A DNA stretch of 64,000 nucleotides. Origin: a virus. Below are positions 3,077 to 54,823 of the stretch, piece by piece. Both the position numbers and the translations under genes were made by a program. Positions within the stretch are counted from its first letter, which is position 1. Each line of letters starts with the position of its first letter. The stretch is taken from IMG/VR virus record IMGVR_UViG_3300009093_000009. The stretch is one strand, 5' to 3'. Below the pieces are notes generated by a model. That model did not search any database, was not told the origin of the DNA, and saw nothing but the letters and a program-made list of their open reading frames with translations.

Positions 3077-3528
3077 ATCGATACTCCTTCGTAGTGGAGC
3101 GCGGCCACAATATCCGATACAACCTTGGCAGGGTCGGATTGCAGCAGTTCGATGGTGTAGGTAAGCACAAGATAACCGTGCAGCAGCAGGGCGTTGCGCT
3201 TCAGGCAGTCCCGATTGCGCATATTGATGTGGCTATGGTTATCGCCATCGATTTCCACGACAAGCCTTGCTTCGGGCCACGCGGCATCGCAGCGCCAGTT
3301 CGGATAGTTACGAAGGCGTTCGTCTTCCCGAACGTGCCACTGGCCTTCAGGATGCTCCTGGCAGCGCGGCAGCGGCACCTGTGGAGCGACCTGCTTCAGT
3401 CGGGTGATAAGTTCGGCTTCGGCGGCATTGGGCTGTGTGCGTGTCTCCTGCCGCACAATGTCGCGCGGCTGCTCGAAGCCCTGCCTCTTCAGGTAGTCTT
3501 GCAGCGCCTTCACGGTCATCCGTGTCAT
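3073..3528 (-). CDS. DUF559/Vsr-like PD-(D/E)xK endonuclease-domain protein
   Basis: C-terminal RCDAAWPEARLVVEIDGDNHSH...RDCLKRNALLLHGYLVLTYT resembles the DUF559 endonuclease core. Confidence 0.65.
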   Translation of the reverse strand: MTRMTVKALQDYLKRQGFEQPRDIVRQETRTQPNAAEAELITRLKQVAPQVPLPRCQEHPEGQWHVREDERLRNYPNWRCDAAWPEARLVVEIDGDNHSHINMRNRDCLKRNALLLHGYLVLTYTIELLQSDPAKVVSDIVAALHYEGVSI

Positions 3529-3710
3529 GATGGATACCCTATAGTCTGTACCGCATAGCGTCCTGCAATGGCAGGGAGAAGCACGCTATCATATTCTTCC
3601 ATCGTGACGGAAGACTTCCCGGTAAAGTAGACCAGCAGCGCACGGTCCGCCAGCATATCAGGAACCCATCGCCCACGCCGCCATACCAGCTTAAGAGTGT
3701 CTTCGCCCAT
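3525..3710 (-). CDS. Hypothetical protein
   Basis: 61-aa ORF with a 4-nt overlap to the downstream gene. Confidence 0.45.
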   Translation of the reverse strand: MGEDTLKLVWRRGRWVPDMLADRALLVYFTGKSSVTMEEYDSVLLPAIAGRYAVQTIGYPS

Positions 3711-4996: not shown

Positions 4997-5944
4997 TTAA
5001 AGGTAGTTGGGATCGGGATAAACATTGGTGAGTGTGGAGCGAACTAGCTGATCGAAGTCTCGATACTCTGCACCGGGATTATTGGTACAAAAGGTGCGTA
5101 CCAGGTCATCAAGGTTAAGGTTGCGCTTCCTGCCTACGTAGAGTATCTTTCGGATAGCCTGCCATCGCTGGCCGATGGGCCATCCCGTATATAGCTCTTG
5201 CTCTGTCTTAGGTGGCAGTCCTGTCATGGTATCGCGCTCTGGAGCATACTCCTGCATGGGCGGCAGTGATGGTCCAGGCGGTAAAAGCGCGTCCCACTGG
5301 GCCACACTTATCGGCGCGTCTCCATCGAACCAATCGACCATCCGTACCGGGCAGTTTCTCGATGGCTTATGGTTCCAGGTTCCGGGCACGCGCAGGATGC
5401 GCGGAAGATCGGTCGATACGGGATCGGCAAACGGAGAACCATCCTTGATGGGCTTTAGTGTTCGTCCGTGCCACTCGACGCCGCCAATCGCCACGCACAG
5501 GCGCTTCAGGAGCATCGACATATCTATCTGCTCCGTGACGCAAGTATCGCTTAAGCGCCAGTAGGTGTGAACGCCTCCGCCGCTCGTAACCATCAGGGAA
5601 GGGCTTTTGATGCGCTGCTCCGCGATGGCGGTACAGAGCAATCGCAAGGCTCCATCCATGCCGCCCGACGCTCCATCGATTTCCGCGAACAGCACTCTCG
5701 ATACGGCCACGCTATCCTTGACGCCGTGCGTCTTTGTCCTGGGCAGGACGCCATAGTACACGTCCATCGTGCCCGACCTGTCCTGGGCGCAGCGCGTGGC
5801 GTACATGATCCCAGTATCCGTGATCGGGAACCAGCGAATATCCATTCCTTTCTTTCCGGGCGTCATCATTCTAAGTTCGATCCATCGTTTCTCGGGATTG
5901 GAGTATCCCGAGAAGATGCTGCTGAAGAAGGATGCGGTATCCAC
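4997..5944 (-). CDS. Primase-polymerase (AEP/PrimPol-type) replication protein
   Basis: VYYGVLPR, FAEIDGAS (acidic DxD-like) and SGGGVHTYWRL motifs are typical of bifunctional primase-polymerase N-terminal domains. Confidence 0.7.
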   Translation of the reverse strand: MDTASFFSSIFSGYSNPEKRWIELRMMTPGKKGMDIRWFPITDTGIMYATRCAQDRSGTMDVYYGVLPRTKTHGVKDSVAVSRVLFAEIDGASGGMDGALRLLCTAIAEQRIKSPSLMVTSGGGVHTYWRLSDTCVTEQIDMSMLLKRLCVAIGGVEWHGRTLKPIKDGSPFADPVSTDLPRILRVPGTWNHKPSRNCPVRMVDWFDGDAPISVAQWDALLPPGPSLPPMQEYAPERDTMTGLPPKTEQELYTGWPIGQRWQAIRKILYVGRKRNLNLDDLVRTFCTNNPGAEYRDFDQLVRSTLTNVYPDPNYL

Positions 5945-6876: not shown

Positions 6877-6915
6877 TCGTGCGTCTCCTTGGCGTCTGCG
6901 GATGCATACCGCCTC

Positions 6916-6946
6916 ATTATACCGGAAGATGCGATGAAAGTGTCTA
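6916..6946 (-). promoter_or_regulatory. Candidate leftward early promoter (Cro operon)
   Basis: On the minus strand: TAGACA, 19-nt spacer, TATAAT (perfect -10 at 6916-6921). The -35-like hexamer overlaps a TGTCTA operator-like repeat. The spacer is long. Confidence 0.4.
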
Positions 6947-7000
6947 TTTGTATACAGAAGTGTCTACAAAATGATATTGCACAGGTAGACGGAATTTCAC

Positions 7001-7029
7001 TTGCGATAGCGGGTGTGAGCGGCTATAGT
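7001..7029 (+). promoter_or_regulatory. Candidate rightward promoter for the CI-like repressor
   Basis: TTGCGA, 17-nt spacer, TATAGT, about 70 nt upstream of the TTG start at 7102. GTAGAC-type repeats lie downstream. Confidence 0.5.
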
Positions 7030-7101
7030 GATATAGAATTGTAGCAGACGGTCAACGAGTGTAGACAGCGATCTGTCCCTGGATAGAGAAGGAAGGGATC
7101 A

Positions 7102-7683
7102 TTGGTAAGAGCACAGCGTTTTGGAGCATGGGTCCAGCAATATCGAACCGATCATGATTGGTCGCAGACGGACTGCGCCGATAGGGTGCAGGAGTACCTA
7201 CGTAACAAGAACCCCGATGCAACCTTTACGCGCGGCGGATGGAGCAAGATCGAACTCTCCCCGGATGGCAGGCAGCCTAGGCGCGATAGGGTACTTCATG
7301 TAAGCATCGGGCTGAACCTGCCGCTGCATGTGGTTGAGCAGGCGGCAGGATATGGCCCATCGTCGGTGGACTTGCCATCGTTTAATGCCATGCTTGGCGA
7401 TCAACTGAAGCGGTGCCGCAAGCAGGCAGATATGAGCATCGAGGATGTCGCCGACATTATCGGCGTGGGCGTGACACTGGTGGCCGCGTGGGAGACGGGA
7501 TCGTCTATCCCCGATCTTTATCAGGCGTTTGCCATGAGCAGGCTTTATGGATGCTCTATCGACAGCTTTGTAACCGATGCCACGGAGCAGGCCGTCGTGC
7601 GTATGCGGCCCACTCTGAAGGATGAACTCGCGCAGCTTAGATCGGAACTCTCCGCTATCCGCCAGCTTGTGCAGCGGGAGTAG
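7102..7683 (+). CDS. CI-like repressor with two XRE-type HTH domains
   Basis: Two HTH_XRE-like segments (FGAWVQQYRTDHDWSQTDCADRV; LKRCRKQADMSIEDVADIIGVGVTLVAAWETG). TTG start behind a GAAGGAAGGG RBS. It is the only rightward gene in the early region. Confidence 0.75.
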   Translation: MVRAQRFGAWVQQYRTDHDWSQTDCADRVQEYLRNKNPDATFTRGGWSKIELSPDGRQPRRDRVLHVSIGLNLPLHVVEQAAGYGPSSVDLPSFNAMLGDQLKRCRKQADMSIEDVADIIGVGVTLVAAWETGSSIPDLYQAFAMSRLYGCSIDSFVTDATEQAVVRMRPTLKDELAQLRSELSAIRQLVQRE

Positions 7684-9051: not shown

Positions 9052-10671
9052 TTACCAGCGATCTTCATTTCGGAGGCTTGCTCCTTCCCGTATCTGCTGG
9101 AACCGATCCAGCGTGCGGGTACACATGACATATTGCAATGCGCGGTGTTGAGCGATCTCATCGGGAGTGGACCCGCGTACCCCTATTATATCCGCTTCCT
9201 CCACGATGACGTGCGGGAACTCCGATCCTTTTGCCTTATGGCCCGTCATACACTGGACGGCCTTGCCGTGAGCATCGCCATCATCCTTGAAAGTATCTAG
9301 AATGACGCGCCCGAAGGCGTGAGTGGTCCTGCATCCCTTCTCGACGGCTCCCTGATAGAAGCAGAGCAGGCTGCTGGCACGCTCACGCGCTTCCTTGACG
9401 TACTCTTCCGGGTTGTGCGTGTGAACGCGCCGCAGGATGACTTCCTGCTGCTGGACCCACGCCTGAAGGTGCAGCGGCAGTTCATCGAACCGGAACCCAT
9501 CGATGGCGGCAAGCTGCCCGACCAGGGCCAGCATATCGCGGCTGATGTCGGTGCCTTTGACGATGGCCGGGATGCCGTGTCGCAGCAGGAAAAGCGCCCA
9601 ACGAATTGCCTGTACGTTTGTTCTGCATATGATGGCCGATCCTGGACCAACGCTCTCCAGAATGTCCATCATATCCACTACTTCGTTGCAGCCCTGAATA
9701 GCGGAAGGTGCTATCTGAAGATCTGGAACCCACTGCCGCGCCAGAGAGAGCACGGCTTTCGGCAGCCGGAAGGATACGCGCATCGGGCATAGGTCGGCAT
9801 CGAAGTGCTTTACCAGCCTTCCAAACATATCGGGATAGGCTCCCCTGAAGAACATAATGGCCTGTGCGGGGTCGCCTACCAACAGCAGGGAAGCATCTGG
9901 CCCAAGGCATCGCTCCCATACCATCCTTTCGGTCGGCGTACTGTCCTGGACTTCATCGATGGCGATGCCCGTGTTCTTGTAGGCATAGGTCTGCAAGCCG
10001 TCGAAGTTGGCGACGGCCCAGGCCAGATCGGAGAACTCGTACCCGTCGGCGATCCGATACCGGCACCCTTCTTCGCCATCGTGATAGGCTCTGGCTTCGC
10101 TCTCGTTGAAGCCCTTGGCGCACCATCGCATGACCTTGGCAAGCTGCCCCTCCAAGAACGCTGCGTCCGATGGCTCTCTGACGAACCTCCGCGCCGTAAC
10201 CAGCACCTTCCCGATGTCGCGCCAGGGCAGAGAGTGGGACTGCACCAGATCGACTACCTTCAGGAAGTCATCGATGCCTGCGTTCTGCTCCTGCGTGAAC
10301 AGCTTCACGTCATCGACGCCATAGAACTCCCGCGCCGCCCAGGTCACAAAGCGCCTGTGACGCCTCCCGTCCTGATGCTGCCAATTCCCGGCGTTACGAT
10401 GCCACTTACGAGCGAGAAGTTTCCAGCACAAGCTATGCGTCGTGCTGATACCTTCGTAGTCTCCTATCGTGGCCTTCATGCTGTTGGAGTTGTACTTGGA
10501 GAAGCAGAGCATCCGATACTCTTTTGCGTTGGAGCCAAGGCGACCGTAGAGTTCCTTCATCATCGTGGTCTTGCCGCTCCCTGGATACCCGACCCAGGCG
10601 ACGGTGTTGCCATTGCCGACGAGAGAAGCATCGAGCGCGGCTTCCTGCTCACCCGTTAGTATCATCGACAT
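9052..10671 (-). CDS. SF1 (UvrD/RecD-like) DNA helicase
   Basis: Walker A GYPGSGKTT, Walker B IAIDEVQD, LVGDPAQAI, and C-terminal TGHKAKGSEFPHVIV (UvrD_C-like). Confidence 0.85.
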   Translation of the reverse strand: MSMILTGEQEAALDASLVGNGNTVAWVGYPGSGKTTMMKELYGRLGSNAKEYRMLCFSKYNSNSMKATIGDYEGISTTHSLCWKLLARKWHRNAGNWQHQDGRRHRRFVTWAAREFYGVDDVKLFTQEQNAGIDDFLKVVDLVQSHSLPWRDIGKVLVTARRFVREPSDAAFLEGQLAKVMRWCAKGFNESEARAYHDGEEGCRYRIADGYEFSDLAWAVANFDGLQTYAYKNTGIAIDEVQDSTPTERMVWERCLGPDASLLLVGDPAQAIMFFRGAYPDMFGRLVKHFDADLCPMRVSFRLPKAVLSLARQWVPDLQIAPSAIQGCNEVVDMMDILESVGPGSAIICRTNVQAIRWALFLLRHGIPAIVKGTDISRDMLALVGQLAAIDGFRFDELPLHLQAWVQQQEVILRRVHTHNPEEYVKEARERASSLLCFYQGAVEKGCRTTHAFGRVILDTFKDDGDAHGKAVQCMTGHKAKGSEFPHVIVEEADIIGVRGSTPDEIAQHRALQYVMCTRTLDRFQQIREGASLRNEDRW

Positions 10672-16780: not shown

Positions 16781-17251
16781 TCAGTCGTCCGCGAAAGGAT
16801 CGCTTTCATCGATGTCATCCGATGGAGCGGGAGCCTGTGCGCGTCGCGCTGGCGCGGGATTAGGGCGCGTGCCACTTACGGGAGTTTCCGTATCCGTTGC
16901 CGCCGCCTCCTGGCCTGCGTCATCGGGCTTCTTATCCAGCCCCTGGATGTCATCGGCCACGATTTCATAGACAGTGCGCTTCTGGCCTGTCGCCTGATCG
17001 ACCCAGGACCGTGATTGCAGGCGGCCATCGATAGATACGAGACGGCCCTTCTTCAGATAGTTCGTGGCGAACTCAGCGGTTTTGCGCCATGCCACGATGT
17101 TGAAGAAATCGACTTCGTACTCGCCCTGGTCGTTCTTGCTAAAGCGATTGACCGCGATACCAAGCTGTGCGACGGCGATGCCCTGTGGTGTAAACTTTCC
17201 TTCTGGGTCGCGGGTCAGCCTACCGATCAATGTTATTCTATTGAGTGACAT
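16781..17251 (-). CDS. ssb: Single-stranded DNA-binding protein
   Basis: MSLNRITLIGRLTRDPE...FFNIVAWRKTAEF...GRLQSRSW gives the OB fold. Pro/Ala-rich linker and acidic tail DESDPFADD. GAAGGAGAG RBS. Confidence 0.9.
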   Translation of the reverse strand: MSLNRITLIGRLTRDPEGKFTPQGIAVAQLGIAVNRFSKNDQGEYEVDFFNIVAWRKTAEFATNYLKKGRLVSIDGRLQSRSWVDQATGQKRTVYEIVADDIQGLDKKPDDAGQEAAATDTETPVSGTRPNPAPARRAQAPAPSDDIDESDPFADD

Positions 17252-17342
17252 TTTTCTCTCCTTCAAACGGGTGTCAAACGGGTGTCAGATCCTGAACAGC
17301 CAGCATATACCATCCAGTAGGCATCGGGAAACTCTGCGCTCA

Positions 17343-23252: not shown

Positions 23253-23957
23253 CTAACTTCTCCGCATGGCAGTAAGGTATCGGCGCTCTACGGCCTTGCC
23301 CTGCGCGGCATCATAGACCAGATCGTAGGCATCGGTCTCGCTATCACGGGCTTTGTTGCGCTGCTTAGTCGCTTTGGCCCTGACATCGGCTGCGACGGCC
23401 TCTGCATCGATCCTTGCTTCTTCTTCAGGCGTAAGATCATACGCCTGATAATCGTCGCTATCCCGAAACGCCCTGATGCATCGCGGGGCATCATTGCCAC
23501 GGCACTTCATGCTGCCGCTATCGGTATTGGCGGCAAACCGATACACTTCCGCAGGCGTGGAAGGGTCTACGGGCATGATCGGAACCATCTTGGAGGTGCG
23601 CCTGATACCCGCCTTGTATGCCTCCGCGATGGATGGGTCCATCATCGATAGCTGCTGCGGGAACCGCTCCGCGCCTTTAGGCAGCTTGCCGTGCTTATTA
23701 CGCTGCGGCGCAAGTATCGCAGCGCGCGGCAGAGACGCCTGAATGCGCGATGTATACTTCCGGCTGCTGCTCGATGTGCGCGCGCCATCCAGCTTGCCCT
23801 GCGATACCATGGACTCCTTGACGCCTTGACGGGCAGACGCCTTGATAGGCTCCGGCTTATCGGGCCTTCCCACGATATGCAGCCCTGCCAACTCCTGCGA
23901 TGACGCCTTGACGTATCCGACGCCTTCCCGATAAATCCATTTGCCGAACGTACCCAT
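23253..23957 (-). CDS. Hypothetical protein
   Basis: Start at MGTFGKW behind an AGGAG RBS. Confidence 0.55.
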   Translation of the reverse strand: MGTFGKWIYREGVGYVKASSQELAGLHIVGRPDKPEPIKASARQGVKESMVSQGKLDGARTSSSSRKYTSRIQASLPRAAILAPQRNKHGKLPKGAERFPQQLSMMDPSIAEAYKAGIRRTSKMVPIMPVDPSTPAEVYRFAANTDSGSMKCRGNDAPRCIRAFRDSDDYQAYDLTPEEEARIDAEAVAADVRAKATKQRNKARDSETDAYDLVYDAAQGKAVERRYLTAMRRS

Positions 23958-24081
23958 GCTCGATACTCCTGCGGGCGGCAGCGCGATGTCGCGCTGCCGC
24001 CCGTCGCCGCCCAATTCCGGGCAGACGTGATGAAGCACCGGGTATCACACGATACCCGGTCAAAGGTGATCCTGCCCGTCC

Positions 24082-24543
24082 CTACGCGCCGCTGACGCGC
24101 CGTTCCGCATCGGCAAGTATTTTAGTCCTGATGCGAGCAGCGTGACGCTCGGCTGCGGCATCGCGTTCCTTCTCGTATCGCCGCGTGAGCATCTCCGCGC
24201 AAGCATACGCGTTTAGCGCGTGGGTCGGCGTGGGCGATAGGTGAGCATTAGAACGCATCGCATCGGCAATTCGCCTCGCTTGCGTTTCGTTGCGAGCCTG
24301 CACGGCGTAATGCTTAGGCATCGCGTAATCCGCGCAAGTCACCACGGTGAATTCCTGCGGGAATGCCAGCCTGTAGGTATCGAGGCTGGCACGTTCCGCA
24401 TCCGCATCCTTGCGCTTCATGGAGCCTGCTAGATTGTTGCGGAGCGTCTTGACTTCCCGGCGCAGACGCGCCGCATCGGCATCAGATAAGAACGTGAGCA
24501 CAAGCTCATATAGAGCGGAAGGGGCAGAGTTTAGCGTGGGCAT
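24082..24543 (-). CDS. Hypothetical protein
   Basis: 153-aa ORF. Its AGGAGC RBS directly follows a 24-bp perfect palindrome. Confidence 0.55.
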   Translation of the reverse strand: MPTLNSAPSALYELVLTFLSDADAARLRREVKTLRNNLAGSMKRKDADAERASLDTYRLAFPQEFTVVTCADYAMPKHYAVQARNETQARRIADAMRSNAHLSPTPTHALNAYACAEMLTRRYEKERDAAAERHAARIRTKILADAERRVSGA

Positions 24544-24602: not shown

Positions 24603-25103
24603 TTAGCGGCAGAAGGACGGAATTTTGTTGAAACCCTTACGGCGAAGTTTGGAGGTCTTGGCATCCGCCAGGTAGCTTGCCAGCAGCAAGGCGGTTTCAA
24701 CGAATACCCTCAGGTGTGGCACACACTCGTTGACGGTATCGAGGCATCCGGCAATAGTGTCTCGTTCGACGGCGGTAAACTCTCGCTTGCCGCCGTCCTC
24801 AGCGATGTAACCCTGGGTGACGAGCAGGCTGAACCGCATGTGAGCGATCATGGCATTATCGATGATCGATTGGATGCGTGCAGCGTTGTACCGTTCGGTC
24901 TTTTCTTCACCGCTATCCGTCTCAAAATCTAGCTCAAACGTGCCCATCGGAGCAGCGATCTTCGCCCACTTCTCCGTTCCGCATCCAGTGCGGTTAAGTA
25001 CATCGCAGATAGCGGTTTCTGCGATGAGCGCATCGTGAGCGATAGCATGTAGGTTATCGCAAAATGCGGCGAATTGATCGATGCGGTTTTCAGTGCGTAG
25101 CAT
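24603..25103 (-). CDS. Hypothetical protein, first gene of the long leftward arm
   Basis: 166-aa ORF preceded by a structured leader of about 235 nt. Confidence 0.55.
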   Translation of the reverse strand: MLRTENRIDQFAAFCDNLHAIAHDALIAETAICDVLNRTGCGTEKWAKIAAPMGTFELDFETDSGEEKTERYNAARIQSIIDNAMIAHMRFSLLVTQGYIAEDGGKREFTAVERDTIAGCLDTVNECVPHLRVFVETALLLASYLADAKTSKLRRKGFNKIPSFCR

Positions 25104-25338
25104 TGGTCGGTCCCTTTCGGTTGTGACTGGTTCGGCAGGCTGCTTGCAACCTGTGCAATGGCATCAGGTGAGCCTGCCGAATTCTGCGGCTATCCGTCGG
25201 TTTCGGCCCGTCCGGGTATGCCGAGCGTCGTCTTGCAGCATTCTCCGACGACGCCCATCTACCGGAGTCATGTCCCTATCGCCGATAGCCAAAAATGAAA
25301 AAAGGCTTTCCCGATAATCCGAAATTGAAAAAGAATAA

Positions 25339-25356
25339 TGTGACCCGTGGGTCGCA
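25339..25356. repeat. Palindromic motif copy 5
   Basis: TGTGACCCGTGGGTCGCA, at the head of the 235-nt leader of the long leftward arm. Confidence 0.95.
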
Positions 25357-25375
25357 TTATTACCCGATGCAGCCT

Positions 25376-25845
25376 CGCGCACGCGCGCGTATAGCTATAA
25401 GCACAGCCCTGATCCTGACGGAGAGCGATACCGGAGAATAAAGAAGAACATCGGACGACAGCACCTCCACGATGCATCTGAGCAGTTAGTACAAATTATC
25501 GAATAGTGGAAAAGCCTTGATGGAAACATCGAAACAAATTTGCTTTTCATGGATTGGATACAACGTGTCTACTAGCAAGCCCAGTAGTAGACCGCATCAA
25601 AGTCTCGATGATCCTGCGATATACTGACGCTCTATCACCAGTTTGTACAAACTCATGGATTTTCATCGTGGAGGTGCTGTCTATGGGCGCTGCACTTACC
25701 CCGATAAGCCTAGAGTAAGCACAAGACTGTATTCTATAGTAAGTATCTCTCGATAACGCGCCTGCGTGCGCGCGTACATGTGTACCTGCGCGTCTACACG
25801 CGTATATCGCGTGTGCGTGCGTACCTATATACGCGCGTGCGCGCG
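25376..25845. repeat. Non-coding segment of about 470 bp bounded by imperfect (CG/TA)-rich inverted repeats, with a nested 18-bp perfect inverted repeat
   Basis: Outer arms: 25376-25394 CGCGCACGCGCGCGTATAG and 25825-25845 CTATATACGCGCGTGCGCGCG. Inner arms: 25457-25474 GACAGCACCTCCACGATG and 25664-25681 (exact reverse complement). Hairpin at 25567-25592. RY tract at 25756-25846. Confidence 0.85.
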
Positions 25846-25927
25846 AGAGCAGACCGCCCATAATCACCGAGAGCACGATGGGAACCTATCGACTAGCGAC
25901 AACTTTGGCGCATAGGGTACAATTCTG

Positions 25928-25957
25928 TTGACAAAATGCCAAAAAGCATCGGATACT
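25928..25957 (+). promoter_or_regulatory. Candidate sigma70-type promoter of the rightward arm
   Basis: TTGACA, 18-nt spacer, GATACT, 35 nt upstream of the ATG at 25993. Confidence 0.55.
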
Positions 25958-25992
25958 GATACCAGACCATCAAACTGTCCGGAGCCATCCCG

Positions 25993-26793
25993 ATGCAAGC
26001 CGCCGTCATTCACGATTTTCAGACCGATGCCAATATCGCCCGCCGCCGCAGCCCGGAAGTTATCGAGCGGCATCTATCCAGTCTGTACCCAGGGGCGCGG
26101 CTGACGCAGGGAACGCTCGATGAAGACCGCGATGGGATCGACTTTTGGGTGGATTGGCGTCTTGGCCGGTTTTCCATCGATGTGAAGTACCGGGAGCGCG
26201 ATTGTCGTAATTTCGGCCTCGATGATGCGTGCCTCGAACTGGATGGTGGAAACGGCCCAGGATGGACGCTGGACCCATCCAAGAAGACGGAAGTGGTAGT
26301 TTGGGCATGGATGGACACTGGAAGGGCCTACAGCGCCCTTTACGCGCCATTACGGGACACTTTTATCGCTTATGCTAATGAATGGTCGCGCAGGTTCGGT
26401 ATCAAGGAGCAGGTCAACCGTAACGCAGGAAGCCAATATGTGACCCAATGGGTCGCAGTTCCCATCGATGTGCTGGAAACCGCGATGGCTCCCTACCTGC
26501 AAATGCGCGGCGGCATCCAGCTTTACGAAGATGCGGCCTTTTGCAGAGTTCCCGACTGCTGCCAGAGCGCCTTCTATCCCTGCGATGAAGCTGCTTACTG
26601 CGGACAGCACTACGAAAAGCTGCGTGATTGGCGCGAAAGCGATCTGATGAAGCATCGAAGGCTGCAATTGGAAGCTGCGGCATCGGCGGCAAGCAGTGCT
26701 AAGTACGATGCTATCAGCGAGAAGACCGAAGCCAGGCGCAATAAGCGCAAAAACAATGACGATTTCGCCTCCATTATGACAAAAAAGGGATAA
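25993..26793 (+). CDS. PD-(D/E)xK-like nuclease-fold protein with C-terminal Cys-rich region
   Basis: EDRDGIDFWVD...FSIDVKYRE fits a D...(D/E)xK pattern. C-terminal CRVPDCC...C...CGQH. GGAG RBS. Contains one variant copy of the palindrome. Confidence 0.5.
   Translation: MQAAVIHDFQTDANIARRRSPEVIERHLSSLYPGARLTQGTLDEDRDGIDFWVDWRLGRFSIDVKYRERDCRNFGLDDACLELDGGNGPGWTLDPSKKTEVVVWAWMDTGRAYSALYAPLRDTFIAYANEWSRRFGIKEQVNRNAGSQYVTQWVAVPIDVLETAMAPYLQMRGGIQLYEDAAFCRVPDCCQSAFYPCDEAAYCGQHYEKLRDWRESDLMKHRRLQLEAAASAASSAKYDAISEKTEARRNKRKNNDDFASIMTKKG
26439..26457. repeat. Palindromic motif variant (3-nt centre) inside a CDS
   Basis: TGTGACCC AAT GGGTCGCA within the 25993-26793 gene. Confidence 0.8.
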
Positions 26794-27194: not shown

Positions 27195-28581
27195 AGGCGA
27201 AAAAGAACAGCTTGCCGATGTCATTGGTCATCGACAGAAGGGTTTTCCTGCGGCTATCCCTTCTTTCGATGGCCTGCCAGCCGAATTTCGCGATGGCGGC
27301 GTTGAAATGGTGCCGATCAGCGATATTTCTGCTCATCCCGGCAATTGGCAGATACATCCCGCGCAGCAGGGCGATGCGCTGCGCCAATCGCTCGATGAAT
27401 TCGGAGTGGTCCAGCCCTGCACGTTCAACCGGCAGACAGGGCACCTGCTCGATGGTCATCTACGGCTTGATATTGCCATCGAGCGCGGTCAGGACGCTCT
27501 TTTCTGTCGCGTAGTCGATTGGGATGCCCACAAGGAAGAACGCTTCCTGCTGGCGTGCGACAAGATCGGCAAGATGGCAGGCCAGGACGATGCGAAGCTG
27601 ATCGCACTGTTCGATACGCACAAGAACGATGACTTCGGACCGCCGCCAGGGTGGACCCTGGACGAAATCGAGAGCCTTGGCCCCATGGAGAAGCAGATCG
27701 ATGAGAAGCCGCAGATGGAGACGCCGGATGCACCGGACACTGATGAAGTACCTTCTCGCGCCGCTTTTGGCGATGTGTGGCAGGCCGGAGAGCACATCAT
27801 CGTGGTCGGCGATAGCAGCAAGACATCGACCGTACGGCAGGCAATGGCGGCGATGCGGGTTCAAAAAGTAGCGCAGGTCTTCACCGATCCGCCTTACGAT
27901 GGCATCAATGCATCGACGTTCGGAGGAGAGCGCCGTCCTGGTTGGGATGGCATCGAAGACGCGGGAATAGGACACTTCAGTCCTAATGACTGGTTTCTTC
28001 CCTCGATGCGCATCTGGTTCGGATGGTCGGATCGCGGGGCCGGGCCGTTCTCGCTGTTCTGCTTCTGCAACGATAGCCTGCTGCTCGATTATATGCAGTG
28101 GTGCAGGCAGCGCGGCGGAACCTGGGCAACGCTCACCTGTTACAAGACCTATCAGGTCATGCCCGTCAGCAGCCATCACTGGCCCGATTGCGAGTACCTG
28201 CTGTGGATGAAGCGCCAGGCGCATTGGAACGACAAGGAAGCGGCTCCGGATGCCAGGCGAGGCAAGGCGCTGCCGTGGGATAAGTCCGATGTATCCGACA
28301 CGCAGCGCGAAAGCGGACATCCGACACCAAAGCCCTTGGAACTGATCGCCAATCAACTGCTGCTGACCACGATGCCGCTTGATGTCATCGCGGACCCTTT
28401 CGGCGGCAGCGGGGCCGTGCTGATCGCCTGTGAAAAGCTGAACCGCAGGTGCCTCTACATCGACCGCGATCAGAAGTGGGCCGACGCTGCCTTAATGTGG
28501 TGGGAACTGATGACGGGCCATAAGGCCGAACTGATTTACTCGCTGGATGCAACCGATGACACAATCGACCGCGATAGCTGA
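27187..28581 (+). CDS. ParB-domain / DNA N6-adenine or N4-cytosine methyltransferase fusion
   Basis: N-terminal ParB-like segment (VPISDISAHPGN...LLDGHLRLDIAIERG). Methyltransferase motifs: motif IV FTDPPY, HPTPKPLEL, and motif I DPFGGSGAVLIACEKL. TTG start behind GGAGGG. Confidence 0.85.
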   Translation: MGRGEKEQLADVIGHRQKGFPAAIPSFDGLPAEFRDGGVEMVPISDISAHPGNWQIHPAQQGDALRQSLDEFGVVQPCTFNRQTGHLLDGHLRLDIAIERGQDALFCRVVDWDAHKEERFLLACDKIGKMAGQDDAKLIALFDTHKNDDFGPPPGWTLDEIESLGPMEKQIDEKPQMETPDAPDTDEVPSRAAFGDVWQAGEHIIVVGDSSKTSTVRQAMAAMRVQKVAQVFTDPPYDGINASTFGGERRPGWDGIEDAGIGHFSPNDWFLPSMRIWFGWSDRGAGPFSLFCFCNDSLLLDYMQWCRQRGGTWATLTCYKTYQVMPVSSHHWPDCEYLLWMKRQAHWNDKEAAPDARRGKALPWDKSDVSDTQRESGHPTPKPLELIANQLLLTTMPLDVIADPFGGSGAVLIACEKLNRRCLYIDRDQKWADAALMWWELMTGHKAELIYSLDATDDTIDRDS

Positions 28582-53700: not shown

Positions 53701-54823
53701 TACGGCGGGTCTGGCCGAAGGCGCGGCTGGCCTTGGCCTTAGCAGGGCGGCGCGTCGTGGCGGCATTTCCAGCTATCGCGCAGCGTCACAGGCTCTCACA
53801 TCTTCTCTCCACGATGAAGACTCTGGCTTGGCCGCAGAGCAGGCGAAAGGTGGGCTAACCTACGATCAGGAGCAGCGTATCAAGCGTCGTAGGATTGCTA
53901 TCGAGAGCGAGACGGATGCGACCCAATGGGACGCACTTGAAACCGGCATTAACATGCGCTACAAGAACGCCGGTAATCAGGTGCGTGGCTCCGGCATGGC
54001 GATGCTTGGCGCGGTAGGGCAGGCGGCGCGGGAATATGCCGATGCGGGCGTGGAAGCCGACAGCCCAATTTGGGGTGATCTGAATACGAAGCGCAGAGCG
54101 GCGCAGGCAGCCGCCTATTCGCAGTACGACATCACGCGCTATAACATCCCGATGATGGGTCTGGAGCACGCGGAGAAGATGGCGCAGAGCCTTCCCTTCT
54201 CTCCCGGCTCCGGCATGGCGCGGGCGGCTGGCAGGCTCTCGATGCGCGGCGGCTATTTGCAGGAGCGCATCGGGCGCTATCGATCGCTCATGGCGGCGGG
54301 CGATCTATCGGAAGAAGAGCAGCAGCAGCAAGTCGCGCAGATATACGGGCTGGAAGAGCAGCAGGCAAGCGACCTGGGGCAGTTTGCGCGGGGCGGCGTC
54401 AATCGCATCGTGGGCAGCAGCGCCGGGATGCCTTCTTTCCGTGGCAGATATGACAGCATGGCGATGACAAGGCTATTCCTATCCAGGTCAGGTAATCCAC
54501 GGATGGACCTTGGCTACGCTTCGGGCGCGCATCGCAACTCCGCGCACAACTGGTTCGATCAGTTTGCGGGTCCAGGCTTCGATCCAGGCACGGCGATGAA
54601 CGCCTATGGTCATGGCTCCGCGATGGGTAATGCCTTATCGGGCCATAGCGATGCTAACGCTGGATTAGTGCAGGCTCTCAATGCGCTTACCCGCGCTCTA
54701 TCTGCGAATGGCGGAGGGAACCCAGGCTCAGGGCCGCTTATCCATGAGCAGCGCGGAAGGCTCGATGCAGGCTTGCAGTACAACCGGCTCGATAATCGCG
54801 CGGGGCATGGAGTAACGGGCTGA
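50792..54823 (+). CDS. Tape measure protein
   Basis: 1343 aa, largest ORF, downstream of the chaperone pair. Helical Ala/Gln/Arg-rich sequence with a Gly-rich insert. Confidence 0.8.
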   Translation: MPDAVITSEIDLKAEAAFGILSSLQKRSDDLRRSLSNINVGLETNHSAGSTGPGTGSPSAAGVASLSTSSPARRGGAPTNPGVMPQITHRATGAAVAGVSSASDVRIPTPPVSNATAGSPSTSQRVSGAAETMVGSEGMAYSTLPETPSSIPRYRIRTDRTDFPSFVPPSAGAGSRVFRGIGGGGSSGGGGGGGGSDSGDDEDDDGEGQPFKERKMRRGSWASLRHTRKVRTLQAHNVDVDEGMGRKAVYSTETDYVVGKASQSEAIRNVRNSARADRLNIRTGNAVDPDDPIALATAEQSYQTMQVGRSTMRAGYRTARRVANVNNATASTLPSEVDESDLLQAEADVRDNSIRINRLGRRARQDAKRSHAPSYNLNTGKIENAPDGMADDYNDWQQAMDDGIDPGDIDSFANQPMRRLRRFSKTPGGRYAYSAGRGAMYAIGQSAAEYLHVQAQEQITGRRDDMAMAGVGGQLVGGVLGASIGGLFGPFSGLIGASVGSQVGSMAVEASLAGQYGRSQRLMGNAGLTALGYSGAELERQSATAGNAWHPEYQNNFGGQVGGSLYNVTQAIPMLGPMVKAWLQQGDPTGSLMPDQAAIEKYRNQLVSLSMQAGDKPTMGELSRTFAPGRTSIDIERTMGSYRRAALGPSTDYNEAEKFLTMGPGDYLQSFAPGEISDSQQQAWLDNYKMLMQGGHRSKQRSTMSTVYQSRANRALLNGGRASDAESALSDLDSTMMTRVGDISDEMRAIANMPGGTTSQQYADLLAEKESVYTGQLQARRYKTEAYNADARAEVGYGYATSGRRMAGVMLTGNSAALRGITSTVVSAMDADISAQAENIRRMREGGYSQAEIRAAENSQVDAETKRMQMPYQIADQALGRYQHERATGMGALETGAYRATQYGSMGDISSAFSAMRSARMGTAAGLIAQRGGVSYEQKLGIDDAINTINRQDIAEQISLRDIGLGRASDTAGLAEGAAGLGLSRAARRGGISSYRAASQALTSSLHDEDSGLAAEQAKGGLTYDQEQRIKRRRIAIESETDATQWDALETGINMRYKNAGNQVRGSGMAMLGAVGQAAREYADAGVEADSPIWGDLNTKRRAAQAAAYSQYDITRYNIPMMGLEHAEKMAQSLPFSPGSGMARAAGRLSMRGGYLQERIGRYRSLMAAGDLSEEEQQQQVAQIYGLEEQQASDLGQFARGGVNRIVGSSAGMPSFRGRYDSMAMTRLFLSRSGNPRMDLGYASGAHRNSAHNWFDQFAGPGFDPGTAMNAYGHGSAMGNALSGHSDANAGLVQALNALTRALSANGGGNPGSGPLIHEQRGRLDAGLQYNRLDNRAGHGVTG

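Follow-up and report, generated by a model that had tools for sequence, protein, structure and literature searches.

To our knowledge, replication origins of phages are rarely identifiable from sequence. In the lactococcal c2-type phages (Ceduovirus), the origin is a non-coding region, without open reading frames (ORFs), between the divergent early and late gene clusters (PMC7150918). That origin was defined by plasmid replication, it needs an early promoter together with the short non-coding transcript made early from it, and ori types differ greatly in sequence (PMC7150918). Here we describe an element at positions 25374-25847 of a 64,000-nucleotide stretch of viral DNA (IMG/VR virus record IMGVR_UViG_3300009093_000009; the window hereafter), which lies inside an 889-bp gene-free gap between two diverging gene blocks. 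The element resembles the c2-type origin in its place in a non-coding gap between divergent early and late blocks; it differs in having no sequence similarity to that origin and in host type (56 % GC here). In addition, the c2-type origin is not described with alternating CG tracts or with a perfect 18-bp inverted pair, both of which are present in the element, and replication was shown there on plasmids, whereas the element is known from sequence alone. Because the element is like the c2-type origin in position, in the absence of ORFs, in its AT-rich core and in a possible short transcript running leftward, we tentatively rank first the reading that it would serve both as the cis-acting core of a replication origin and as an early control region.

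A second group of described systems, the pri-rep-ori origins of SaPI/PICI islands and Sfi21-type phages, is represented here by the phage AcaML1 and 39 IMG/VR contigs. The likeness consists in an alternating CG/CA tract, 18-36 nt long and in some cases identical over 19-21 nt, placed among inverted repeats beside AT-rich DNA. In contrast to the window, which has neither iterons nor an SF3 helicase, the pri-rep-ori loci carry the tract flanked by iteron arrays and 50-300 nt beyond the helicase gene. The centre of SaPI origins is reportedly AT-rich and not CG-alternating.

When the two halves of the element were compared, the symmetry was limited to three modules, namely the alternating tract, the 18-mer and a TTTGTAC(A/T)AACT box of 12-14 bp (Table 1). 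Since the symmetry is confined to these discrete modules, the idea that the halves are diverged inverted duplicates was rejected. The two tract blocks stand in inverted orientation with their TATA ends inward, their arms are 412 nt apart, and they bracket a core of 360 bp; on the minus strand the outermost right tract reads CTCGCGCGCACGCGCGTATATAG, with the TATA end toward the centre. The outer inverted repeat described by a sequence-only reading of this DNA is present and extends further than its two named arms, and the inner 18-mer pair is perfect, as had been claimed. At up to three mismatches the 18-mer has two matches in 64 kb against 0.08 expected, and none of 100 shuffles reached two. 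The window contains only five inverted repeats with a length of 16 nt or more within 1 kb, two of which lie in the element. The near-pure alternation of purines and pyrimidines at the right end was likewise borne out: in the 90-nt stretch from 25753 the fraction of alternating steps is 0.89, about 7 standard deviations above the mean of the window (0.514, standard deviation 0.053), and four of the five longest alternating runs of the window (18, 23, 17 and 20 nt) lie inside the element. No other repeat-rich non-coding candidate was found in the window. This anatomy, its statistical significance and its uniqueness in the window are direct observations, as is the recurrence of the tract at origin-like sites of other elements (below); as follows from their composition, the tracts would also be prone to form Z-DNA.

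The centre is as AT-rich as had been stated and is the third least stable 190-bp stretch in the window by duplex stability. The hairpin previously noted in its middle is present, and the inverted repeat around it has GTGTCTAC and GTAGAC words in common with the immunity region at 6940-7066, in agreement with the claim that it is made of the word of the immunity operators; of the 25 GTCTAC words in 64 kb, three are in the element and three in the immunity region. A palindrome in the centre had also been noted; it exists, while its length had been misjudged, since it is in fact 14 bp long and has a 12/14 copy on the other side, 156 bp away from centre to centre.

The perfect 18-bp repeats around a short AT-rich segment at a divergent junction, together with the sharp fall of identity outside them, would also suit an inverton, in which a recombinase flips the 189-bp segment and thereby swaps promoters facing the two blocks. 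We regard this as very improbable. A scan of about 40 window ORFs revealed neither a serine nor a tyrosine recombinase, no flipped form was seen in the two assemblies, an independently assembled contig has the same orientation (0 mismatches over 11,365 nt), and the further symmetric modules outside the repeats are unexpected for an inverton. Extrusion of the 18-mer pair as a cruciform is unlikely at a spacer of 189 nt, given the kinetics of cruciforms.

The predicted fold of the element is very stable (z about -7.2), which might point to a structured non-coding RNA gene, one of the functions proposed earlier. However, the z-score is equal on both strands, as expected of inverted repeats at the DNA level, and the strong fold is therefore not evidence for an RNA. 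The Rfam scan proposed as a check gave no match at the gathering threshold in the whole window; all hits were to low-complexity miRNA models far below threshold, and the best of them, mir-466, has 28.7 bits against a threshold of 85 and is a low-complexity artefact. Homologues that could show covariation are lacking. The RNA proposal is thus not supported, and an RNA gene is very improbable.

Table 1. Positions of the features of the element, of the gap around it and of the AcaML1 site (window coordinates except in the last row).
Feature	Position	Strand	Remarks
Perfect stem TTCGGCAGGCT / AGCCTGCCGAA	25131-25181	.	11-bp stem, 29-nt loop; leader of leftward block, outside the element
Hairpin AATAATGTGACCC-GT-GGGTCGCATTATT	25334-25361	.	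13-nt arms, 92 % complementary; followed on the minus strand by T-run CTTTTTCAATTT
Outer inverted repeat	CGCGCACGCGCGCGTATAG 25376-25394 / CTATATACGCGCGTGCGCGCG 25825-25845		extends to 31 nt, 25374-25404 / 25817-25847, 77 % complementary
Left alternating CG/CA tract CTCGCGCACGCGCGCGTATAG	25374-25394	+	TATAG end toward centre
18-codon ORF (MFFFILRYRSPSGSGLCL)	25395-25451	-	behind left 18-mer; ATG 25451 to TAG 25395, GGAGG 12 nt upstream
Left 18-mer copy	25457-25474	-	outward strand reads CATCGTGGAGGTGCTGTC, includes GGAGG
AT-rich centre	25475-25663	.	189 bp, 40.2 % GC against about 56 % in the window
Operator-like box AGTTAGTACAAATT	25484-25497	.	12/14 match to right palindrome; 9 nt inside left 18-mer
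Central inverted repeat GTGTCTACTA-N10-TAGTAGACCG	25565-25594	.	near symmetry centre; hairpin GTCTACTA-N10-TAGTAGAC at 25567-25592, 8-bp stem, 10-nt loop
Perfect palindrome AGTTTGTACAAACT	25640-25653	.	14 bp; 10 nt inside right 18-mer
Right 18-mer copy CATCGTGGAGGTGCTGTC	25664-25681	+	perfect match, 189 nt from left copy
11-codon ORF MGAALTPISLE	25683-25718	+	ATG 25683 to TAA 25718, GGAGG 8 nt upstream
Right alternating tracts	25753-25847	-	tandemly duplicated 51-nt unit (25753-25792, 25804-25843)
Sigma-70-like promoter TTGACA-18-GATACT	25928-25957	+	10/12; candidate for rightward block; right of the element, outside it
AcaML1 site (L096, Acidithiobacillus phage, JX507079)	3470-3570		between primase gp17 and gp18, directly after gp17

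Indirect support for an origin comes from the recurrence of the alternating tract at origin-like sites of other mobile elements. The 19-mer of the left arm, CGCGCACGCGCGCGTATAG, is found exactly in 10 IMG/VR contigs from five unrelated lineages with GC contents of 32-57 %, and also in 20 species-representative genome contigs, including Nautiliaceae (28 % GC) and Desulfurococcales (27 % GC) bins; an identical 21-mer occurs in three other lineages. As calculated from base composition, a CG-rich 19-mer cannot be present in bins of 27-28 % GC by chance. Meanwhile, the lineages with the identical 19-mer have no neighbouring proteins in common. A degenerate scan with the pattern CGCRCRCRCRCGCGTATAG, which allows A or G at four positions, retrieved 70 IMG/VR contigs, in which 12 of the 16 CG/CA variants are present at similar frequencies. 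The 19-mer was therefore rejected as a specific recognition site, and its identity between lineages is explained by how few sequences such alternating CG/CA tracts can take. As a feature of origin cores, the tract is thus defined from these 70 and 20 loci and not from published work.

The contexts of these tracts, which are 18-36 nt long and in several cases carry TATA on both ends, are uniform, and the loci span from 27 % GC (a Desulfurococcales archaeon and Nautiliaceae bins) to 76 % GC (Actinobacteria). A homologue of primases or SF3 helicases (D5_N, DUF5906, VapE, Toprim or phrog 'DNA primase') is encoded in 39 of the 70 loci, in 31 of those at most 300 nt from the tract and typically with its 3' end toward it; these counts are only partly corrected for relatedness. 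Tracts of this class lie between inverted arrays of short repeats: the share of sites with at least three inverted 8-mers common to both flanks was 34 % (n = 87), compared with 1.8 % among 1515 control positions. Others have AT-rich DNA on one side, followed by three to five direct iterons. When 12 homologous sites were aligned, the CG/CA units proved variable while the alternation was kept. Taken by its sequence features, the layout of tract, repeats and primase/SF3-helicase gene looks like a replication origin served by a helicase-type initiator. Neither the sequence nor such tracts at origins are described in the literature searched. We consider it possible, with more doubt than confidence, that the alternating CG/CA tract (18-36 bp, TATA at one end) belongs to the core of replication origins in many mobile elements, mostly alongside primase/SF3-helicase initiators, and is conserved in its alternation and not in its sequence. 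This phage would then show a new layout, with two inverted tracts around an AT-rich core that holds a perfect 18-bp inverted pair.

One of the tract sites is in a cultured phage. The AcaML1 site reads CTGACGG twice, then TACGCGCGCGCGCGTGTAC, then CCGTCAG three times, and it has no annotation in the record; it is a candidate for the origin of that phage. Further examples from IMG/VR and GTDB (phages, plasmids and contigs of metagenome-assembled genomes, MAGs; L006-L095) include L036:7150-7290, L047:6170-6290, L012:4100-4360 and L026:100-330. A Clostridia MAG contig (CANQEW010000001.1) carries two copies of the 19-mer, L018:1731 and L023:7368, each followed about 25 nt on by a near-identical sequence of about 50 nt (GTACTATTCYTTATACTGTTT...TATAAGGGTCTATTAGA), and one copy adjoins a VapE-like helicase gene. 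The paired copies may be duplicated origin modules or element boundaries.

Alternating TATA(CG)nTATA cores inside larger inverted repeats are also known from telRL, the telomere-resolution site of N15 and of linear plasmid prophages of the phiKO2 type. Some tract sites elsewhere, for example that of L047, are near-perfect 100-bp palindromes of such a kind. By contrast, the arms in the window are 412 nt apart, its tracts are not palindromic and no protelomerase-like gene was found among the ORFs scanned, and a telomere-resolution site is therefore not supported for the element.

If the element is an origin with an early control region, its parts could act together as follows. The 189-bp AT-rich centre would be the stretch that opens, and the two 18-mers with the adjacent 14-bp palindromic boxes would form paired sites, inverted and separated by about 15 helical turns, to which a protein of the phage or the host binds. 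Through the GTCTAC inverted repeat in its middle, the element would be linked to the repressor system of the phage. The alternating CG/CA tracts, whose TATA ends face inward, would bracket the unit as structure-prone DNA that responds to negative supercoiling, and their role is presumed to be the same as in the origin-like sites that other mobile elements carry. Opening might be aided by weak transcription outward from the centre, as at the origin of phage c2, and leftward transcripts would end at the hairpin at 25334-25361. All of these functional steps, including the binding protein and the site at which replication would start, are ones that we infer.

Several observations weigh against an origin. 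Iteron arrays do not flank the tracts in the window, and the enriched words in 25104-25992 are tract words only. Neither an SF3 helicase nor another recognisable initiator is adjacent, the flanking genes being orphans, and the replication genes (PrimPol-like, 4997-5944; UvrD-like, 9052-10671; SSB, 16781-17266) lie 8-20 kb off, the PrimPol-like and UvrD-like genes at 15-20 kb. No DnaA boxes were found near the element, and the centre ranks only third among the least stable stretches; the scans for DnaA boxes and duplex stability are not discriminating, however. As for the tract class, about 30 of the 70 loci have no helicase nearby, the consensus is biased since the class was retrieved with a pattern fixing ...CGCGTATAG, and the facing of the TATAG end to the AT-rich side is a weak tendency across loci (p 0.05-0.12). 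In addition, the element is present in no relative found, so conservation gives no support. The origin proposed by the sequence-only reading thus gains from the c2-like position and from a tract that marks origin-like sites beside primase/helicase genes, and loses from the missing iterons, adjacent initiator and DnaA boxes. Because the window lacks iterons or an SF3 helicase beside the tracts, the origin reading is an analogy and not a proof.

Searches for copies and relatives gave little to compare. The DNA of the gap has no match in phage or plasmid collections. The 18-mer as a probe gave three IMG/VR and 113 metagenome matches, all of them single and none with extended similarity, and these were rejected as further copies of the element and attributed to chance on that ground. 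Relatives were sought in IMG/VR by the two flanking proteins and by TerL, and none was found; TerL identity to the best relatives does not exceed 56 %. In the distant relatives L097 and L100, too, the junction has a large non-coding gap (at least 1038 nt in the former, 1188 nt in the latter). Alignment with related phages, which had been suggested to reveal conserved repeats, was of no help, since the equivalent gaps have no alignable similarity to the element; L097 and L100 are without it. The motif GTCT[AG]C is modestly enriched in the equivalent gaps of both. Outside the element, the stretch 25189-25235 beside the leader stem (Table 1) resembles the gap of L100 (z 4.4; 45-nt similarity). 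In L097, a 57-nt tandem AT-rich repeat (881-976) stands between promoter and first gene, with repeated TTGTCTGCTTGC words. The contigs of the nearest relatives all end within the equivalent gap (L097:1-1038, L098:1-940 and L099:1-258); in this phage group the gap may contain repeats or the physical ends of the genome.

The absence of the element from L097 and L100 would be expected if it were a non-autonomous insertion like a miniature inverted-repeat transposable element (MITE), with 31-nt imperfect terminal repeats and a possible 4-bp target duplication, GCAG. Its terminal inverted repeats, size of about 470 bp and strong fold-back suit such an insertion, and GCAG lies one base from each end, where it may be a chance match; we estimate the probability of a 4-bp match near the borders by chance at a few per cent. 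However, no second copy was found in the window, IMG/VR, JGI metagenomes, phages or plasmids, and the tract matches in other genomes are single, unpaired and otherwise unlike the element, with nothing else in common with it. A MITE-like origin of the element is accordingly very improbable.

The transcription and translation signals of the gap bear on another reading, purely transcriptional control, which we hold to be almost as likely as the origin reading. Two weak outward promoters in the centre would give two short divergent transcripts with the same 18-nt leader carrying a strong ribosome-binding site; repressor-type proteins on the 14-bp palindromes and the GTCTAC repeat would loop the 156-bp interval, and the leftward transcript would have to pass the terminator at 25334-25361, in a lambda-like antitermination or attenuation. 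The claim that each outward strand has a Shine-Dalgarno-like word followed by a tiny ORF was confirmed by direct reading, with GGAGG 8 and 12 nt ahead of ATG. The occurrence of the same 18-mer on both divergent transcripts recalls nutL and nutR of lambda, two operator-like palindromes are present, and the GTCTAC words, whose variant is enriched in the gaps of L097 and L100, tie the centre to the immunity region. Between 25104 and 25400 the left block has no sigma-70-like promoter, so its promoter may sit in the centre. The hairpin with a T-run on the minus strand looks like a terminator for leftward transcripts from the element; it was not listed by a stricter terminator scan.

On the other hand, the promoter scan found no sigma-70-like promoter of at least 9/12 inside the element. 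The best candidates in the centre reach 7-8/12 (-10 TATACT at 25620-25625 on the plus strand and GATAAT at 25500-25495 on the minus strand) and are placed asymmetrically with respect to the symmetric modules. The two tiny ORFs are unlike in both length and sequence. Because the segments that hold them, between 18-mer and tract, are dissimilar between the sides (z 0.5), we doubt that they are genes, though both stand behind GGAGG; the 18-codon leftward ORF is probably not a gene. At 6907-7683 the phage already has a CI-like gene with an operator region of its own. Furthermore, transcriptional control leaves the alternating tracts and their link to origin-like sites unexplained. The second operator or divergent-promoter region proposed earlier is thus favoured by the concentration of GTCTAC and the two palindromes, and not by promoters. 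In a comparison with OL/OR and nutL/nutR of lambda, the sequence shared by two divergent transcripts, the operator-like palindromes and a terminator past the putative leftward start are alike, whereas here the CI-like gene and its operators are 18 kb off, consensus promoters are lacking, and the 18-mer has, on direct reading, no boxB-like hairpin. The transcriptional-control reading is compatible with the origin reading.

Other candidate regulatory sites were seen in the window. The plus-strand HTH_3 gene of CI/Cro-like type (7102-7683) lies inside the minus-strand block, GTGTCTA(C)/GTAGAC repeats precede it (6907-7130), and a leftward promoter of 9/12 overlaps one repeat. A direct repeat, TCAAACGGGTG, present 2.3 times at 17263-17287 between the DUF932 and SSB genes, overlaps a 10/12 sigma-70-like leftward promoter (TTGACA-16-AAAAAT), possibly a regulated middle promoter. 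The promoter of the rightward block is one of about seven sigma-70-like sites of at least 10/12 in the window. The palindrome GTGACCC-N2/3-GGGTCGCA occurs both in the terminator-like hairpin (25340-25356) and inside the first rightward gene (26440-26457), with a variant, GCGACCCAATGGGACGCA, at 53918-53935; at up to three mismatches it has six matches against about two expected.

The window, of about 64 kb, is an essentially complete phage-like genome. A 64,161-bp metagenome contig from ENA, differently permuted, has 0 mismatches to it over the 11,365 bases compared, and since the two assemblies break at different points (near 27357 of the window), the assembly is circular. The leftward, minus-strand block ends at 25103 and contains genes for ParB-like, PrimPol-like, SSAP, UvrD-like helicase, topoisomerase-like, SSB and DUF932 proteins with many small orphans (among the early orphans those at 23253-24038, 24082-24543 and 24603-25103), while the rightward, plus-strand block begins at 25993 with an orphan having a PD-(D/E)XK-looking motif, followed by ParB-methylase, TerS, TerL, portal and structural genes. 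The gene caller of the source assembly placed no gene between 25103 and 25993, and this gap is the only long gene-free stretch at a junction of minus- and plus-strand blocks. GC and AT skew both switch at the gap; the switch carries no independent weight because gene orientation flips at the same place.

The first rightward gene (25993-26793, 266 aa) has a D...(D/E)xK-like motif by eye, GIDFWVDW...SIDVKYRE, which suggests a PD-(D/E)XK nuclease. Its product had no match in a word-indexed search of 5.8 billion proteins; tblastx gave weak homologues in L097 (42 %) and L099 (35 %), each located as in the window. The structures predicted for the flanking orphan proteins have a pLDDT (predicted local distance difference test) of 40 and 65.5 without a meaningful fold match, and a search against PDB sequences returned nothing.

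Neither an integrase nor a recombinase or protelomerase turned up in the ORFs scanned; together with the ParB-like gene (1790-2824) and the CI-like gene, this fits a plasmid-like prophage or a lytic phage with regulators. The ParB-like protein and the hint at a plasmid-like prophage could also speak for a partition (centromere) or packaging (cos/pac) site bound by a ParB-like protein or the terminase. The terminase genes begin 2.7 kb rightward, the contigs of L097, L098 and L099 end within the equivalent gap, and the 14-bp palindrome is loosely like parS half-sites. Such a site is nevertheless highly improbable here: the palindrome has only two copies, no ParA was found, and the two genome assemblies break elsewhere. 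Moreover, portal and terminase of the relatives are of the Mu-like/headful type, and in headful-type phages pac is usually in or near terS.

The origin reading remains the one that we place first. If the tract is a true hallmark of origins, it would be a simple marker for the origins of many uncultured phages, plasmids and islands, and it would raise the mechanistic question of what a structure-prone CG tract does within an initiator-binding site. This phage has almost no relatives, and its early genes are mostly orphans; for experiments on its origin and early switch, the element offers the best starting point.

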